A DNA stretch of 5,645 nt. Source: Clostridia bacterium. GTDB lineage: Bacteria; Bacillota; Clostridia; Christensenellales; Aristaeellaceae. This document shows positions 1 to 5,645 of this stretch, in pieces. Below the pieces are notes generated by a model. That model saw nothing but the letters and a program-made list of their open reading frames with translations. It ran no database searches and was not told the origin of the DNA. A program made the position numbers and the translations under genes. Within the stretch, counting starts at the first letter, position 1; the number at the start of each line of letters is the position of its first letter. The stretch is taken from contig JAUNDF010000030.1 of the NCBI GenBank assembly GCA_030526225.1, forward strand, positions 19,795 to 25,439. The letters are read 5' to 3'.

Positions 1-568
1 TGGGTTTGCCGCAGTGGGGGCAAACGGGCAGCAGCGCCGTGGGGATGCGCATATCCTGCTGATGGGCGACCATCTGCCGGATGATGGCCTCGTTGTCGAA
101 GGTCTCCTTGCAGCAGGGGGTGCTGCACTGGAACAGGCCGTAATCCCCCTGGGTGTAGAACAGGCGCTGTTTGTCGAACCCGGCCTTCTGAAAGCAGTGA
201 TCCACATTGGTGGTGATGACGAAGTAGTCCTTGTCCCGCACCAGCTGCAGCAGGGTGTCGTAGACGGGCTTGGGGGTATCCTCATAGCGGTTGATGTGGA
301 TGTAGCGGCTCCAGTAGGCCCAATGCTCCTCCGGGGTTTCATAGGGATAGAAGCCGCCGGAGTACATATCCGGGATACCGTAGACCTCGGCGAAATCCCC
401 GAAGTGCTTCAGAAAGCGCTCGCCGCTGTAGGTGAAGCCTGCCGATGCGGACAACCCTGCACCTGCGCCGATGAGCACCGTGTCGCAGGATTGCAGAGCG
501 GAGGTCAGCTGGTCAATCAGCCCGGAGCAGTCGGGTGTAGATGTCCTTGTCTGTGTCCTTGAAAACAT
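1..568 (-). CDS. sirTM: Class-M sirtuin (SirTM-type Sir2-family protein mono-ADP-ribosyltransferase). N-terminal ~189 codons only; the 3' end runs off the window.
   Basis: Absent from the supplied ORF track because it is open to the window edge. My manual minus-strand translation from ATG 568..566 gives MFSRTQTRTSTPDCSGLIDQLTSALQSCDTVLIGAGAGLSASAGFTYSGERFLKHFGDFAEVYGIPDMYSGGFYPYETPEEHWAYWSRYIHINRYEDTPKPVYDTLLQLVRDKDYFVITTNVDHCFQKAGFDKQRLFYTQGDYGLFQCSTPCCKETFDNEAIIRQMVAHQQDMRIPTALLPVCPHCGKP. It carries the Rossmann GAGAG motif, TTNVDH, QGDYG, and a Zn-ribbon Cys pattern (C..CC...CPHC). From memory it is collinear with the Streptococcus pyogenes SirTM. An SD-like AGGTGA (575..580) sits 6 nt upstream of the ATG. 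The start overlaps the macro gene by 56 nt, so its exact position is less certain than the product call. Confidence 0.85.
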   Translation of the reverse strand, partial: MFSRTQTRTSTPDCSGLIDQLTSALQSCDTVLIGAGAGLSASAGFTYSGERFLKHFGDFAEVYGIPDMYSGGFYPYETPEEHWAYWSRYIHINRYEDTPKPVYDTLLQLVRDKDYFVITTNVDHCFQKAGFDKQRLFYTQGDYGLFQCSTPCCKETFDNEAIIRQMVAHQQDMRIPTALLPVCPHCGKP

Positions 569-1307
569 TGAAAATCACCTTTTTGATACTCGTTTGCTGT
601 GTCATAAATTCCCGGACGGTCTGCAGCGCGATTTCTGCCGCCAGCTCATTGGGGAAGTGGAATTCTCCGGTGGAAATGCAGCAGAAGGCTACGCTTTCCA
701 GCTGGATGTCTGCCGCCAATGTCAGGCAGGCGCGGTAGCAGGAGGCCAGCAATTCCTTGTCCTTCTCCGTTACATCGCCCTGAATGATGGGCCCCACGGT
801 GTGCAGTACATACCTGCAGGGCAGATTAAAGGCCGGGGTGATTTTGGCCTGCCCTGTGGGTTCGGGATGCCCCTGCGCCGCCATCATGCAGTCACAGGCA
901 CGGCGCAGCTGCACCCCGGCAAAGGTGTGGATGGCGTTGTCGATGCAGCGATGATTGGGGGCATAGCAGCCGGTCATACCGCTGTTGGCGGCGTTGACGA
1001 TGGCATCGCACCGCAATGTGGTGATGTCCCCCTGCCACAGGTACAGCCCCGGCTGAAGGGGCGTCAAGTCGTCGACATCGGTGATGCCCTTCGATGCGAT
1101 TTCCTCCTTCAGGTATTCATCCTGCACGGCCAGAAAATCATCGCTGACAGGATCGGCCTCCCGGATGTTCATCAGCCCCCGGAGCATCAGCCACTGGCTT
1201 TCCGCATCCGTGGGAATGCGCCGTCCGCGAAAATCCCGGTTCTCATCCAGCAGGGCGCGCAGCAAAAACCGCCTGCGCCGGGCTTGGGTCATGGGTTGTT
1301 CGTTCAT
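513..1307 (-). CDS. MacroD-type macrodomain protein-ADP-ribose hydrolase (the SirTM-partnered class).
   Basis: This is the ORF-track entry 513..1319. Motifs seen: WQGDITTL..DAIVNAANS..G, HTVGPI and CCISTGEFHFP, the macrodomain ADP-ribose-binding signatures. The N-terminal helical extension (RRRRFLLRALLDENRD...LRGLMNIREADPVSDDFLAVQDEYL) matches, from memory, the S. aureus/S. pyogenes SirTM-operon macrodomain. I prefer ATG 1307..1305 (MNEQPMTQ...) because GAGGTG (1312..1317) lies 4 nt upstream and the resulting length matches homologues. The alternative ATG 1319 forms an ATGA overlap with the DUF1848 stop. Confidence 0.9.
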   Translation of the reverse strand: MNEQPMTQARRRRFLLRALLDENRDFRGRRIPTDAESQWLMLRGLMNIREADPVSDDFLAVQDEYLKEEIASKGITDVDDLTPLQPGLYLWQGDITTLRCDAIVNAANSGMTGCYAPNHRCIDNAIHTFAGVQLRRACDCMMAAQGHPEPTGQAKITPAFNLPCRYVLHTVGPIIQGDVTEKDKELLASCYRACLTLAADIQLESVAFCCISTGEFHFPNELAAEIALQTVREFMTQQTSIKKVIFNVFKDTDKDIYTRLLRAD

Positions 1308-1315
1308 GGGGCACC

Positions 1316-2248
1316 TCATTCAAACAAGGTCAGCTGACGGTCGATGTAGGATTCCTGCCGGGCTTCAATCACCGTGTCGCCGGGCTGTGCACCACCGATG
1401 AGGAAGGGCGAGGCCGGGTCGTGTCGGCGGATGTTGCGCTCTACGGTTTTGCGGTCATAATTGGCGTAGCAGTAGATGCAGCCGTGGGGACAGGTGTTGT
1501 ACATGCCGATGTCGGCCCCCAGCAGGCAATTGCACTGGCTGCGGGTGGATTTCTTCGACCTGGGCACACGGAGGCGGCAGTCAGCGGCCTTTTCCAACAC
1601 GGCTTTCGTCATGCAACCGGATACATCTGCGCCGAATTCAGCCAATGCGGCGTTCTCACAGCAGGTGCGGATGGGAATGCCGTATCTCATGCCGATTTTG
1701 ACGAAAGCCTCCATCAACGCCGCCTGCTCCAGGGTGCTGACCGCCCGCACGGAGGGGAAGTTCCGCTTCGTCTTCTCGTACAGGTCGATGAAGCTGATGA
1801 CGCAGAAGCTCACCTTGCCGGCCATGGTGGATGCCATCCGCTCGAAGGACTTGATATGGAAGTCCATGGAATACTTCTCTGTGATGAAGATGGGGTCATA
1901 ACGCCAGCCCACAGCTTTCGCACCCACCTTTTCAGACAGCTGCGACACGGACTGCATCACCTTTCCGCAGTCCGGCACAAAGGGCTCAATTTCCCGGCCG
2001 TAGGGGGTAACGGTGACGAACCAGAACTGCCGGAAATCGTCCAGCTCGCTCAGGCGGGGCAGCATGGGGGCAGGGTTCTTCGTGCAGAAGCACAGGATAT
2101 CCACCACCTTGGGGTCCAGGCGATAGCGGATGACCTGATTGGGATGGTAGGGGTTCCGGGTGCACACAAAGCCCTCTCGGATGCGGTTGTAGAACCAATC
2201 GCTGTAATAGGCCGGAATGTCCGTCCGGCAGCCGGTGTTGAGTATCAT
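1316..2248 (-). CDS. DUF1848-family protein with a C-terminal CX3CX2C cluster (putative Fe-S / radical-SAM-like enzyme, function unknown).
   Basis: This is the ORF-track entry 1316..2263. The N-terminus MILNTGCRTDIPAYYSDWFYNRIREGFV..RNPYHPNQV is the DUF1848 signature as I remember it. The C-terminal NTCPHGCIYCYAN motif (C258/C262/C265 in track numbering, nt 1469..1492) has canonical CX3CX2C spacing, with upstream CNC and CC pairs. I prefer ATG 2248 (GGAG at 2258..2261, 9-nt spacer) over TTG 2263. Confidence 0.8.
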   Translation of the reverse strand: MILNTGCRTDIPAYYSDWFYNRIREGFVCTRNPYHPNQVIRYRLDPKVVDILCFCTKNPAPMLPRLSELDDFRQFWFVTVTPYGREIEPFVPDCGKVMQSVSQLSEKVGAKAVGWRYDPIFITEKYSMDFHIKSFERMASTMAGKVSFCVISFIDLYEKTKRNFPSVRAVSTLEQAALMEAFVKIGMRYGIPIRTCCENAALAEFGADVSGCMTKAVLEKAADCRLRVPRSKKSTRSQCNCLLGADIGMYNTCPHGCIYCYANYDRKTVERNIRRHDPASPFLIGGAQPGDTVIEARQESYIDRQLTLFE

Positions 2249-2846
2249 GGAGATTCGCTCCAATTCGCAGAATGCGGCCCTCCTTGCGGGGCTTGGGGGT
2301 GGGATGCTTGTCGCCGGTGCGGGGATAGCCCAGCAGCAGCTGCATCACGGCGTAATGGGTGGCGGGGATGGCCCAATCCCGCAGGATTTCCTGCCCGTAG
2401 GGGTCGGCAAAGGCGCCCCAGCCCTCCCCAATATAGCACGAACCGATGCCCAGCGCATCCCCCGCCAGCATCATATTTTGGGCGGCCAATGCGCAATCCT
2501 CCTTGGCGAAGAGGAAGTTCTTCGGGGCAAAGAGGGTGATGACCGTGGGCGCGCCGTAGAAGGCATCGGTGATGGATGCGTCATCCGCAATGCTGGGCTG
2601 CTCCCGGGAGACATAGTTGTTGCCCTGTGCCATGCGGGGATGGGCGTTGGCCCGCTTGATGCGGCCAAGACGCAGATTGACCTCCCTGTCCTGACACACG
2701 GCGAAGAGCACGCCCTGCCGTCCTCCGGCACTGGGGGCATACAGCCCGGCCTCAAAGATTTGCTGCAATGCGCCTTCCTCAAGCTGCCGGTCATCAAAGC
2801 GTCGGATGGAGCGGCGGTGGCGGATGGTGTCCATCACGGATGTCAT
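1986..2846 (-). CDS. Nitroreductase-family FMN oxidoreductase. The recognisable domain is roughly codons 1-195. As sequenced, the ORF continues about 90 further codons into the DUF1848 gene in another frame.
   Basis: N-terminal IRHRRSIRRF and APSAGGRQ motifs are typical of the NfsB/NfnB-like nitroreductase fold. The C-terminal LLLGYPRTGDKHPTPKPRKEG resembles the usual end of such proteins. GAGGAGG (2854..2860) lies 7 nt upstream of ATG 2846..2844. That ATG overlaps the stop of the upstream gene as ATGA. The 3' end is doubtful because the tail after about nt 2262 is P/G/H/R/L-rich and overlaps DUF1848 by 263 nt. Confidence 0.8.
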   Translation of the reverse strand: MTSVMDTIRHRRSIRRFDDRQLEEGALQQIFEAGLYAPSAGGRQGVLFAVCQDREVNLRLGRIKRANAHPRMAQGNNYVSREQPSIADDASITDAFYGAPTVITLFAPKNFLFAKEDCALAAQNMMLAGDALGIGSCYIGEGWGAFADPYGQEILRDWAIPATHYAVMQLLLGYPRTGDKHPTPKPRKEGRILRIGANLHDTQHRLPDGHSGLLQRLVLQPHPRGLCVHPEPLPSQSGHPLSPGPQGGGYPVLLHEEPCPHAAPPERAGRFPAVLVRHRYPLRPGN

Positions 2847-3409
2847 TTTGCGGCCTCCTCATCAAAGCGGTTGGGCAGATAGTAAACCTGTCGGGGCAGG
2901 CTTTCGGAGAAGGAGTTGAACTCGGCCCACACCTCGGTCAGGTAGTAGCCGATAACAAATTCCCGGCGGTCGCCGAACTGGGAGGTCAGCACCGGGCTTT
3001 CCTCAAAGCAGCGGTTGATGATGTCCTCATCCTTGGTGAAATTCACCTTGCCGCCCAGCCGCACATAGGTCATGGTCTCCTGATCGCAGATGCACAGCTG
3101 GATATAGGGGTGGGCCAGCAGCTCGGCGTAGGTGCTGTAGAACACCACGGTGTCGAAGTACAGCACGCCGTCCTGCTCGAACTTGAATTCGATGGGGCGA
3201 ATCTGCGGATTGCCGTCGGTGCCCAATGTGGCGGCATACTGCAGGGGGAAGCGCTCAAAGACCCTGGTCACCACCTCAAGGCCGTTGTCAAAATTAAGGG
3301 ATTCAAAAAAGGCAAGGTTGCTCATAGGCTCCTCCTCACACAGGGCAGAGGGAATCAGCGCGGTCAGCATCAGCAGGGCGCACAGCAGCGCAAGGCATTT
3401 CTTCATCAT
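2843..3409 (-). CDS. Pyridoxamine-5'-phosphate-oxidase-like (FMN-binding split-barrel) family protein with a hydrophobic signal-peptide-like N-terminus.
   Basis: The core FPLQYAATLGTDGNPQIRPIEFKFEQDGVLYFDTVVFYSTYAELLAHPYIQLCICDQETMTYVRLGGKVNF resembles small clostridial PNPOx-family proteins (pattern ..YLAT...G.P.VRP..F....G.LYF.T.....Y..L..NP.V......G...R..G.A.F). The N-terminus MMKKCLALLCALLMLTALIPSALC has signal-peptide n- and h-regions. AAGGAG (3418..3423) lies 8 nt upstream of ATG 3409, which overlaps the rSAM stop as TGATG. A second possible start is ATG 3325 (MSNLAFF...), preceded by GAGGAGGAG. Confidence 0.65.
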   Translation of the reverse strand: MMKKCLALLCALLMLTALIPSALCEEEPMSNLAFFESLNFDNGLEVVTRVFERFPLQYAATLGTDGNPQIRPIEFKFEQDGVLYFDTVVFYSTYAELLAHPYIQLCICDQETMTYVRLGGKVNFTKDEDIINRCFEESPVLTSQFGDRREFVIGYYLTEVWAEFNSFSESLPRQVYYLPNRFDEEAAK

Positions 3410-4443
3410 CAGTCAAGCTCCTTCCAGCATTGGGGGTCGGCGGCGTAGAAGTTGCCGTCCTTGCCGCTGGCCACGGCGGGACAGCCCCGGCACCAGCCCA
3501 GCAGCTCGCACCGGCTGCATTTCTCGAACTTCGTGTAGTCACGGTACTGCTCCATCTGGCACACCCATACATCAGCCAAAAGGTCGGTGAACACATTGGC
3601 CACCTTGCTGTTCTGTACCCGGCGGCAGGCGTACACATCGCCCGTAGGCAGGATGGTCAGGTGGCAGTTGCCGCAGTTGCAGCCGCCGTACACCATGCCA
3701 TCCTCGGCGTAATCCGGGATTTTGAACGCGCCGGTTTCGTACTCATACAGGGTCCACAGGTGGTCCTTCTTGTTGAAATACGTCTGGCATCCGGCAGCCT
3801 CGTATGCCTTGAATTTGGCATCGCAGTCGGCCAGCAGCTGACGATAACGGAGCGGCTCGATGCCCACATCCTTATCCTCAGCCGTGGGGCAGTACCGGGC
3901 AAAGGCGAATACATTCACACCCGCTGCCACCGCCGCATCAATGATGCCGGGGACCTCGTCGATGTTCTTGTCGGACACGGTGGTCATCACCACAGAGCGA
4001 ATCCCCGCCCGGTTGATGCAGCCGATTTTCTCCAGGGTGATGTCAAAGCTGCCGGGCTTGCGGAACCAGTCGTGGGTCTCCCGCAGACCATCCAGGGACA
4101 ACTGATACTTCTCACAGCCATGCTCCTTCAACCGTCGGCACACATCATCCGTCAGGTGGAAGGGGTTGCCCAAGATGGTGAAGGGGATGCCGTGCGCCTT
4201 CATCAGCCCCAACAGCTTCCAGAAATCCGGGTGCAGGATGGGATCGCCGCCGGTGATGTAGAAGTAAGGCAGGCGGTCATACGCCTTGCAGAAATCAAGG
4301 CAGTTATGGAAGGTGTCCTGCATCTGGTCCCAGGTCATGGCATCCAGCTTCTTGCTGCAGTCCTCGGAGAAAATGTAGCAGTGCTTGCAGCGCTGGTCGC
4401 ATTCGTCGGTGATGTGCCACTGGAAAGAAAAATACTGTTTCAT
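3409..4443 (-). CDS. Radical SAM/SPASM-domain enzyme, the putative maturase of the adjacent ACGX-repeat peptide.
   Basis: CDQRCKHCY gives CX3CX2C at residues 15-22 (nt 4378..4401). YITGGDP is a SAM-binding GGE-like motif. The C-terminal SPASM pattern is C255xC257xxC260-x12-C273 (with G-x4-C), then C309xxC312x5C318xxC321, then C339 (nt 3427..3681). That Cys pattern fits a full SPASM domain with auxiliary Fe-S clusters. GGAGG (4450..4454) lies 6 nt upstream of ATG 4443. Confidence 0.92.
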   Translation of the reverse strand: MKQYFSFQWHITDECDQRCKHCYIFSEDCSKKLDAMTWDQMQDTFHNCLDFCKAYDRLPYFYITGGDPILHPDFWKLLGLMKAHGIPFTILGNPFHLTDDVCRRLKEHGCEKYQLSLDGLRETHDWFRKPGSFDITLEKIGCINRAGIRSVVMTTVSDKNIDEVPGIIDAAVAAGVNVFAFARYCPTAEDKDVGIEPLRYRQLLADCDAKFKAYEAAGCQTYFNKKDHLWTLYEYETGAFKIPDYAEDGMVYGGCNCGNCHLTILPTGDVYACRRVQNSKVANVFTDLLADVWVCQMEQYRDYTKFEKCSRCELLGWCRGCPAVASGKDGNFYAADPQCWKELD

Positions 4444-4544: not shown

Positions 4545-4757
4545 TTACTTGTCGCCGGCACCACAGGCAGAGCCGCAGGCAGCGGGAGCCTGAGCGGGCT
4601 TGTCAGCGGCACCGCAGGCAGCGGGCTGCTCGGCAGGCTTATCGGCGGCACCGCAAGCGGAGCCACAGGCAGCAGCGGGCTTATCGGAAGCACCGCAGGC
4701 GGCAGCAGGAGCGGCTTCGGCCTTCTTGGCCCAGCCGAAGAGGTTGGAAAGAGCCAT
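4545..4757 (-). CDS. ACGX-repeat peptide (70 aa, six Cys), a putative radical-SAM-modified precursor or carrier peptide.
   Basis: Translation from ATG 4757: MALSNLFGWAKKAEAAPAAACGASDKPAAACGSACGAADKPAEQPAACGAADKPAQAPAACGSACGAGDK. GGAGGG (4765..4770) lies 7 nt upstream of the ATG. There are six A-C-G-[A/S] motifs, and the gene sits immediately 5' of a radical SAM/SPASM gene on the same strand. The 120-aa version in the ORF track (to 4907) runs through the upstream terminator and has no RBS, so I use the shorter form. Confidence 0.85.
   Translation of the reverse strand: MALSNLFGWAKKAEAAPAAACGASDKPAAACGSACGAADKPAEQPAACGAADKPAQAPAACGSACGAGDK
4548..4706 (-). repeat. In-frame degenerate tandem repeat encoding the ACGX/DKP modules.
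   Basis: Related plus-strand units are gcgggcttgtcagcggcaccgcaggc (4594..4619), gcaggcttatcggcggcaccgcaagc (4633..4658) and gcgggcttatcggaagcaccgcaggc (4675..4700). They are spaced 39 and 42 nt apart (13 and 14 codons). The protein modules are AAACGASDKP / AAACGSACGAADKP / AEQPAACGAADKP / AQAPAACGSACGAGDK. Confidence 0.8.
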
Positions 4758-4877: not shown

Positions 4878-4916
4878 AAAAAAGGGCAGGAAGACGGACG
4901 CTGCCATCTTCCTGCC
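4878..4916 (-). terminator. Rho-independent terminator of the upstream hypothetical gene.
   Basis: A perfect 10-bp stem, GGCAGGAAGA (4885..4894) with TCTTCCTGCC (4907..4916), encloses a 12-nt loop. On the minus strand it is followed by C then TTTTTT (4878..4883). It starts 15 nt after the TAA stop at 4932..4934. Confidence 0.85.
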
Positions 4917-4931
4917 AAAGGGGGTTACCGA

Positions 4932-5645
4932 TTACTGATACAGCATGCCGGCAGACATTTCCAGATAGTTCTCGCCAACATACTCGGGGAAGGCTTCCTT
5001 CATGGCAGCCACGAAGCCCTCGGCAGTGTCGTTGGCCTCAGCCAGCTCCTTGGCGGTGGCCACATAAGCCAGCTTCTCGGTCACGGCATCCTGACCTTCC
5101 ACACCGCTGTGGGAGGAGAGAATCATGTCATAACCGGCAGCCTGATACTCCTTCAGGATTTCGGTCATCACATCCATGTGAGCGGCACCGGCCATGATGG
5201 AGTGGCAAGTCTTGCCCAGCATGTGGGTGTAGATGGCGTTCATGGAGGGGATTTCCAGATCGTAGGTGTCGCCGCGGTCAATCAGGTTGAAGTCGATACC
5301 GGCCACATTCACGGTGCCGGACACCACATTGTTGATGTTGGCCATGTCGGGGCCGCCGTGGAACACATCGCCGAAGGTCTCGTACAGGCCCTGGGTGGTG
5401 GCAAAGGTGGAGCCGGAAGCGATGGCATCCTGAGCACCCTGAGTGCCGTAGATGGTCATGCCCTCCACATAGCTGGCACCGGTGGCATGGTCGCACAGGA
5501 ACAGGTCGTTCATGGGCTTGTTCAGGGAAGCAATATAGCCCTTCCAGGCATCCAGGCTGTCGGTGAAGCTGGGCAGCTCGATGCCCACCAGTGCATCAGC
5601 GCCTTCCACGATGAAGGCCACATCGCCCAGAGCATCGCCGGTGGC
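4932..5645 (-). CDS. Hypothetical protein, C-terminal 237 codons; the 5' end runs off the window. It may be a degenerate metallo-beta-lactamase-like fold.
   Basis: The ORF-track entry 4932..5621 starts at an internal GTG. The frame stays open to the window edge (..ATGDALGDVAFIVEG..). Amino-acid composition looks like real coding sequence. The only fold hints are weak ones (VAFIVEG..ALVGIE, LFLCDHATG, MILSSHSG) vaguely reminiscent of MBL-fold strands and motifs. The terminator downstream makes it a separate transcription unit. Confidence 0.6.
   Translation of the reverse strand, partial: ATGDALGDVAFIVEGADALVGIELPSFTDSLDAWKGYIASLNKPMNDLFLCDHATGASYVEGMTIYGTQGAQDAIASGSTFATTQGLYETFGDVFHGGPDMANINNVVSGTVNVAGIDFNLIDRGDTYDLEIPSMNAIYTHMLGKTCHSIMAGAAHMDVMTEILKEYQAAGYDMILSSHSGVEGQDAVTEKLAYVATAKELAEANDTAEGFVAAMKEAFPEYVGENYLEMSAGMLYQ

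Follow-up and report, generated by a model that had tools for sequence, protein, structure and literature searches.

DUF1848 as a candidate circularly permuted radical S-adenosylmethionine enzyme encoded beside a Zn-Macro/SirTM pair

A 5,645-nucleotide (nt) stretch of a Clostridia bacterium genome (assembly GCA_030526225.1, contig JAUNDF010000030.1, positions 19,795 to 25,439 of the forward strand; hereafter the window) carries a gene of the DUF1848 family directly before the genes for a zinc-dependent macrodomain protein (Zn-Macro, or Macro) and a SirTM-class sirtuin, which raises the question of what kind of enzyme DUF1848 is and whether it works with the ADP-ribosylation pair that it adjoins. 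On balance we favor, with moderate confidence, the reading that DUF1848 is a permuted radical S-adenosylmethionine (SAM) enzyme that is functionally coupled to the Zn-Macro/SirTM pair. The gene itself is a known DUF. It lies at 1316..2248 on the minus strand and encodes 310 amino acids (aa), and its product matches PF08902 (DUF1848) above the gathering score and over the full profile (positions 1-262 of 262, E 4.2e-96, 322 bits, cutoff 30.5), so that the family membership proposed by an earlier reading of the sequence alone (the sequence-only reading) is secure. The minus-strand open reading frame (ORF) spans 1316..2263, and the ATG at 2248 is the probable start codon because the relatives all begin MIL. 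The closest of these share up to 74% identity at 100% coverage, and a search of a library clustered at 50% identity gives the family 4,227 representatives (E≤1e-3). NCBIfam holds no model for DUF1848, and a PDB sequence search with the protein returned no relative.

The assignment to radical SAM chemistry starts from a cysteine motif. In ordinary radical SAM enzymes, a strand and the CX3CXΦC loop open the barrel. The corresponding motif of the DUF1848 protein, C253-X3-C257-X2-C260 (CPHGCIYC; codons at 1469..1492, minus strand), follows all six predicted β/α units and is not placed in the loop after β1 as in canonical radical SAM enzymes; it is presumed to form the SAM-binding [4Fe-4S] site. 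The sequence-only reading had located the motif at these nucleotides and had remarked on its canonical spacing and the aromatic residue before the third cysteine, and both observations hold: among 103 cluster representatives with 34-54% identity to the query, C253, C257, and C260 are conserved at 96-98% and the aromatic Y259 at 96%. It had also described the motif as C-terminal, which is right in that it occupies residues 253-260 of 310 but not in the sense of the protein's end, as about 50 partly conserved residues follow. The motif cysteines are retained in all viral homologues checked (22-40% identity), and this conservation, both family-wide and in viral homologues, indicates that CX3CX2C is a hallmark of the family and not a chance match. 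Four extra cysteines, C196, C212, C239, and C241 (1526..1663, minus strand), are each conserved at 95-98%, and 129 of the 140 sequences in the alignment show the pattern CCCC. This conservation suggests a second metal site, presumably Fe-S or zinc. The sequence-only reading had quoted the CNC stretch, and its cysteines are indeed present, but it did not count them as a site, although the four extra cysteines are at least 95% conserved. With seven invariant cysteines, the family could ligate a second metal site in addition to a radical SAM cluster. Together with T9, D10, K57, T79, E88, and R116, these seven cysteines are conserved down to 22% identity.

Annotations as 'DNA repair photolyase' are attached to DUF1848 proteins in some sources, and this label prompted a comparison with spore photoproduct lyase (SPL; SplB, COG1533-type, PDB 4FHC family). 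A first hhalign run against a shallow SPL alignment, consisting of close Bacillaceae SPLs with 77-90% identity, gave the barrel a score of 16.7, no better than shuffles (15.4±2.9). The SPL alignment was then widened with eight divergent SPL-family proteins from plasmids, and the barrel result was kept only thereafter. Residues 1-228 of DUF1848, with the Cys motif excluded, align to SPL 169-312 with a score of 29.3 (P 0.0025), compared with 15.5±2.7 and a maximum of 28.3 for eighty column shuffles and 16.5 for the reversed alignment. An independent tool run aligned DUF1848 74-153 with SPL 191-268 (P 6e-4 and 5e-3). Control alignments of Macro, SirTM, and a nitroreductase encoded in the window gave P values of 0.09-0.32 in the SPL comparison, and for the radical SAM/SPASM maturase of the ACGX peptide system, also encoded in the window, the match was confined to the 12-14 residue Cys motif. 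When the DUF1848 alignment is permuted so that 229-310 precede 1-228, it is colinear with SPL 77-313 across the junction. The cluster motif stands before the barrel in SPL (C91-C98 of 342) and after it in DUF1848 (C253-C260 of 310), which is the pattern expected of a circular permutation; the alignment of the barrel, without the Cys motif, to the SPL region C-terminal to the SPL cluster motif thus lends support to the idea of a permuted enzyme that the sequence-only reading had put forward.

The residues brought together by this alignment are those expected around a bound SAM molecule. In the SPL structure, S142 and D143 stand in for the GGE motif, K174 and S195 hold the SAM carboxylate, and S195 and the backbone of A234 contact the SAM adenine and ribose (PMC3467042). 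The DUF1848 barrel segment with the hhalign counterparts of the SPL SAM-binding and invariant residues lies at 1892..2224 on the minus strand. T9, D10, K57, and T79 align to SPL S142, D143, K174, and S195 (S143, D144, K175, and S196 in the hhalign numbering), and E88 and P119 align to the family-invariant E207 and P236. All six of these SPL residues fall on conserved DUF1848 counterparts (6/6, each at least 93% conserved), compared with 0-2 in 80 shuffles, and their spacing is similar in the two proteins except for a β-hairpin insertion at DUF1848 27-43. On the basis of the alignment alone, T9, D10, K57, and T79 are predicted to be SAM-binding residues. SPL and DUF1848 also share a CX3CxYCY-type motif and an alignable β-α-β-α-β segment, and neither has GGE. 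Taken at its modest statistical significance, the comparison suggests that DUF1848 is a circularly permuted SPL-like radical SAM enzyme. It differs from SPL in the extra four-Cys site, in the β-hairpin 27-43, and in the hydrogen-atom-relay cysteine. The window protein has Cys at residue 7 (2228-2230, minus strand), aligned with the SPL relay residue Cys141 (Cys140/141) at the same spacing before T/S-D, and so do about two thirds of its closest relatives; Cys, Ser, Met, or Asn is found at this position among close relatives and Arg in 58% of family representatives. SPL orthology was rejected because the relay Cys is unconserved in the DUF1848 family, indicating that DUF1848 is SPL-like and not an SPL orthologue. 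No other SPL or COG1533-type protein was found in the window or in the collected loci L001-L205 by an SPL hidden Markov model (HMM) scan and a Cys-motif scan.

The AlphaFold model, computed from a 47-sequence alignment, has a mean confidence (pLDDT) of 86 and places six β/α units in residues 1-205 in a (β/α)6-type layout; beyond these lie a Cys-rich stretch predicted with low confidence and a short helix at the C-terminus. Conserved polar residues are found at the C-terminal ends of the predicted β-strands, and T9, D10, K57, T79, E88, and P119 are each positioned at or just past such an end. In a Foldseek search of the model against the PDB, the 50 matches listed are all TIM-barrel folds but weak (E about 1e-3, TM 0.22-0.37), and the radical SAM enzyme MqnE has the highest query-normalised TM-score, 0.37, among the matches listed. 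In this comparison of a predicted structure with known folds, which the sequence-only reading had proposed for radical SAM folds, the matches point to a fold of the TIM-barrel type, but they are weak and SPL is not among the 50 listed. The radical SAM profile PF04055 has no match above its gathering score in the native protein. Against a tandem-doubled sequence it reaches 20.9 bits, below the 29.5 cutoff, and covers residues 249-268 only, and in a search of the doubled sequence against Pfam and NCBIfam the radical SAM models, including the PA0069-type, cover only the 18-24 residue Cys motif. The position of the PF04055 alignment is consistent with the radical SAM resemblance that the sequence-only reading ascribed to the Pfam entry for DUF1848.

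Several results weigh against a permuted SPL-like enzyme, the absence of SPL from the listed Foldseek matches among them. Region 240-265 of the AlphaFold model has low confidence, as would be expected because the metal is absent from the model. A permuted 20-sequence DUF1848 profile found no radical SAM enzyme in the PDB, HHalign probabilities for DUF1848 and SPL are just 7-29%, and HMMER gave a marginal match limited to the motif for the DUF1848 HMM against SPL (E 0.07-0.2) and E above 1 for the SPL HMM against DUF1848. The literature searched held nothing functional on DUF1848 (PF08902/IPR014998) and no biochemical data. A rival account is a non-radical TIM-barrel enzyme such as a hydrolase, nuclease, or glycosylase, in which the seven cysteines would form structural or redox-sensing metal sites and CX3CX2C would be convergent. 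The subthreshold PF04055 score, the missing GGE motif, and the ordinary TIM-barrel hydrolases and oxidoreductases that make up the best Foldseek matches listed are in keeping with such an enzyme. The motif, however, has the aromatic residue and the following Y-A of COG1533-type enzymes, the residues that contact SAM in SPL are matched by conserved residues whose order and spacing are as expected, and in one phage lineage a SAM-synthetase-like gene starts 5 nt downstream of DUF1848, so that we regard a non-radical enzyme as quite unlikely.

That phage lineage belongs to a wider set of contexts that bear on the substrate. DUF1848 homologues were found on 38 viral contigs, and in the lineage concerned (about ten contigs, L171-L181 and L203) the adjoining gene encodes a 264-aa S-AdoMet-synthetase-N protein (41 bits, cutoff 33.1) and is followed by genes for three ParB_N proteins, one with a methyltransferase domain (e.g. 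L173 3557-8098), in what looks like a phage DNA-modification block. Three of the longer DUF1848 representatives contain an additional domain, which belongs to PcrA/UvrD Tudor in the first, to TcmP (TIGR04474, 2.3e-50) in the second, and to GNAT in the third; in the collected loci a TcmP partner gave no match and Tudor gave a single match (L067), about 4 kb from DUF1848. The PADLOC RTasDUF1848 model matches residues 1-265 of the window protein (1.2e-35), and a survey of UG/Abi reverse transcriptases (RTs) places DUF1848 beside UG25 RT-methylase fusions. These loci share the Pfam family with the window, in which the partner is an ADP-ribosylation pair and not an RT; no reverse transcriptase or methylase was found in the window or among the recurrent neighbours of related loci. 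The viral, fusion, and RT contexts together with the SPL similarity point to the use of SAM, and the substrate is presumably nucleic acid or nucleotide-linked.

We infer from these comparisons that DUF1848 binds an Fe-S cluster and cleaves SAM, and a mechanism may be outlined. Residues 1-230 would form the (β/α) barrel, in which T9-D10 would replace GGE and K57 and T79 would serve the SAM carboxylate and ribose, with E88 and P119 as additional conserved positions. The strand and CX3CXΦC loop would be supplied from the C-terminus with C253, C257, and C260, and the four-Cys site, probably a second cluster or zinc, would tie the cluster loop to the barrel. The reduced [4Fe-4S] cluster would then cleave SAM, and the resulting 5'-deoxyadenosyl radical would attack a substrate held over the barrel mouth. 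A parallel is offered by ThiC and other radical SAM enzymes with a cluster outside the N-terminal part, in which the cluster-binding Cys triad is described as C-terminal to the (β/α) barrel (PMC4389238), an order as in DUF1848. ThiC, however, binds SAM in a different mode, and its motif is CX2CX4C and its barrel a full (β/α)8. The spacing in DUF1848 is the canonical CX3CX2C, and no sequence relationship between the two was seen.

The second part of the question is whether DUF1848 is tied to its neighbours. The Zn-Macro gene (513..1319, minus strand) encodes a protein-ADP-ribose hydrolase of the NF003163 family (6e-107, 357 bits, cutoff 272) with clear matches to Zn-Macro structures in the PDB (8rsi 2e-77, 5kiv 2e-71) and a conserved zinc loop, GC..P.H.CID..IH. 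The SirTM-class gene (2..568, minus strand) is cut by the window end, leaving the N-terminal 189 aa; the fragment matches the S. pyogenes SirTM 5a3a (1.4e-44), with the TTN and QG motifs aligned (QG instead of HG), and the full-length orthologue in locus L001 matches 5a3a at 1.7e-71. The start of SirTM (568) overlaps the Macro 3' end by 56 nt, and the first ATG of the Macro ORF shares an ATGA (1316-1319) with the stop codon of DUF1848. Macro may in fact start at a Met further downstream, because relatives and the NCBIfam alignment begin at ORF residue 10; even then the gap between DUF1848 and Macro is under 30 nt, and the translational coupling proposed by the sequence-only reading stands with this reservation on the exact start codon.

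The same reading had placed DUF1848 where GcvH-L would sit in SirTM operons. The neighbours are a true Zn-Macro and a true SirTM, and the published order of the extended operon, GcvH-L, Zn-Macro, SirTM, LplA, agrees (PMC11490716); because GcvH-L directly precedes Zn-Macro in that order, DUF1848 occupies the GcvH-L slot. The extended operons of Staphylococcus and Streptococcus (GcvH-L, Zn-Macro, SirTM, LplA2, LLM/OYE) resemble the window in having Zn-Macro followed by SirTM with overlapping ORFs, a third gene directly upstream of Macro, and flavin oxidoreductases nearby, these being OYE and LLM in the extended operon and a nitroreductase and a PNPOx-like protein here. The window differs in that a 310-aa predicted Fe-S enzyme replaces the small lipoyl carrier, no GcvH-L or lipoate ligase (LplA) domain being found among the window proteins or in the 17-kb context of L001, the closest syntenic relative, and in that an ACGX peptide and maturase are attached in some genomes.

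To place this arrangement in a wider frame, two samples of loci were examined, one of 80 loci from a species-representative genome collection anchored on DUF1848 (55-73% identity), and one of 80 metagenome loci anchored on relatives of the window Macro gene. In contigs whose DUF1848 is 72% identical, the genes again run ACGX, maturase, nitroreductase, DUF1848, Macro, SirTM, and a locus with a 66%-identical DUF1848 (L005) has a minimal DUF1848-Macro-SirTM module flanked by unrelated genes. Macro and/or SirTM lie within 4 kb of DUF1848 in 11 of the 80 genome loci, and Macro, SirTM, or an ACGX cassette lies beside it in 13. The trio is found without an ACGX cassette in L005/L011, L012, L013, L049, L079, L093, L161, and L167, and its order varies (DUF-Macro-Sir, Macro-Sir-DUF, and others), with Macro-SirTM-DUF1848 in Bacteroidota-labelled contigs. 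Neighbour clustering returned as recurrent specific neighbours only nitroreductase, SirTM, Macro, the ACGX maturase, and a PNPOx-type protein, plus an ABC-ATPase cluster. For a gene pair present no more than about once in a genome, adjacency by chance would be expected at far below one locus in 80. Macro and SirTM recur beside DUF1848 in several gene orders, and the recurrent linkage that the sequence-only reading had proposed to look for is found; it is real but facultative, at roughly 15-25% of assessable loci.

The facultative character of the linkage also speaks in favor of an autonomous DUF1848, acting for example in nucleic-acid repair or modification, with its adjacency to Zn-Macro/SirTM reflecting shared regulation or co-transfer in stress islands. 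No Macro, SirTM, or ACGX neighbour is present in 43 of 62 assessable same-clade loci, most Zn-Macro/SirTM pairs occur without DUF1848, and in the Macro-anchored sample DUF1848 adjoins Macro in only 9 of 80 loci, two of the nine being fragments. A neighbour-joining tree built from 86 DUF1848 proteins shows genes with and without the linkage mixed among each other and requires at least 7 gains or losses of it, and the family has other contexts without ADP-ribosylation. The predominance of unlinked DUF1848 loci indicates an autonomous role with facultative coupling, and these counts speak against functional coupling. On the other side, overlapping or near-abutting adjacency recurs in at least three gene orders and in both Bacillota and Bacteroidota, the three-gene module of L005 stands alone, and no other specific neighbour recurs. 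We therefore give a wholly autonomous DUF1848 a real but minor chance, and retain functional coupling of a permuted radical SAM enzyme to the Zn-Macro/SirTM pair as the better account of the locus.

The gene order of the window itself raises another possibility, namely that DUF1848 is a second tailoring enzyme for the Cys-rich ACGX peptide, working beside the SPASM maturase, and that Macro and SirTM are incidental. All recognisable window genes are on the minus strand, and seven of them form a tight co-directional array in the order ACGX peptide, SPASM maturase, PNPOx-like, nitroreductase, DUF1848, Macro, SirTM. The first gene (4545..4757, minus strand) encodes the ACGX-repeat precursor peptide (TIGR04341, 5.7e-25) and the second (3409..4443, minus strand) the canonical radical SAM/SPASM maturase of the ACGX system (TIGR04340, 6.4e-181; PF04055, 9.4e-20, plus SPASM). 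DUF1848 comes directly after ACGX, maturase, and nitroreductase in the window and in L001-L004 and L008, and cassettes are also found near DUF1848 in L055, L065, L077, L078, and L083. The maturase is, however, near DUF1848 in only 6 of the 80 genome loci, and an obligate role in the ACGX pathway was rejected on this co-occurrence. Many trios lack the cassette, L137 has the cassette and Macro-SirTM without DUF1848, and the nearest relatives that could be detected for the barrel are SPL enzymes, which act on DNA, and not peptide maturases, which makes a tailoring role improbable.

Other arrangements of these genes were also observed. ACGX cassettes adjoin SirTM in L055, L065, and L137 (also in L078 and L083), with Macro absent from L055 and L065 and DUF1848 absent from L137, indicating that ACGX, SirTM/Macro, and DUF1848 form a variable three-way neighbourhood. 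SirTM could act on the ACGX peptide itself, which is rich in Cys and Asp. About 30 loci within L090-L133 have a close relative of the Zn-Macro (about 68% identity) but lack SirTM within 5 kb, so that pairing with a sirtuin is not universal in this macrodomain clade. A PNPOx-type protein of roughly 200 aa recurs upstream of Macro/SirTM (L001 4641-5255, L012, L013, L116, L117, L125, L126, and L129), the L001 protein having Pfam PNPOx_N and ferredoxin-type (Fer4) domains, and HxlR-type regulators are also recurrent near Macro/SirTM loci. The PNPOx-type proteins and HxlR regulators fit a theme of redox or electrophile stress.

The remaining features of the window complete the array. The PNPOx-like flavoprotein gene (2843..3409, minus strand; PF01243, 2.4e-8), whose product has a hydrophobic, signal-peptide-like N-terminus, is positioned between the maturase and nitroreductase genes and is missing from the otherwise syntenic L001-L004. 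The nitroreductase-family gene (1986..2846, minus strand; PF00881, 1.2e-23) lies directly upstream of DUF1848, and its ORF extends about 260 nt into DUF1848 in another frame, adding a Pro/Gly/His-rich tail. In L001 and L008 the nitroreductase stop lies in an ATGA that overlaps DUF1848. Relative to those loci, the junction in the window (about 2250-2262) is 1 nt shorter, so that the nitroreductase stop is lost and the ORF continues; the difference is either a real indel or an assembly error. A terminator-like hairpin at 4885..4916 (minus strand), with a 13-bp stem containing 8 GC pairs followed by a T-run, divides the array from the upstream gene (4932-5645, minus strand), which runs off the window and has no Pfam match and a faint match to a metallo-β-lactamase-fold model (NF040580, E 0.0097).

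What coupling to the pair could mean in the cell follows from what is known of SirTM. According to PMC11490716, no SirTM target other than GcvH-L is known, and those of the remaining SirTM/Zn-Macro systems have yet to be identified. DUF1848 would most likely be the local client of reversible ADP-ribosylation, either as the modified target or as an enzyme acting on the same substrate, and the setting would be redox stress, marked by the nitroreductase, PNPOx-like proteins, and HxlR-type regulators nearby. A more far-reaching version, in which the orphan SirTM/Zn-Macro pairs of gut anaerobes control a nucleic-acid-repairing or -modifying, permuted SPL-like DUF1848 by reversible ADP-ribosylation, with the ACGX cassette and flavoproteins, where present, as a redox-sensing arm, is a speculative proposal that we consider rather doubtful.

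Relative to the papers that could be searched, the evidence for a permuted SPL-type family with retained SAM-binding residues and an extra four-Cys site appears to be new, as does the recurrent DUF1848-Zn-Macro-SirTM module with DUF1848 in the GcvH-L slot; literature searches on ACGX, on TcmP, and on Macro, SIR2, and radical SAM together returned nothing functional. DUF1848 is a large uncharacterised family with members in bacteria and on viral contigs as well as in a candidate defence system, and a permuted SPL-type enzyme with SAM-binding residues, if true, would give it a concrete biochemical hypothesis and a set of mutants. The recurrent module supplies a locally encoded candidate partner for the ADP-ribosylation pair, testable with purified proteins. 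If DUF1848 is a regulated client of the pair, it would be the first SirTM client besides GcvH-L and would provide the first link of bacterial sirtuin ADP-ribosylation to radical SAM chemistry.

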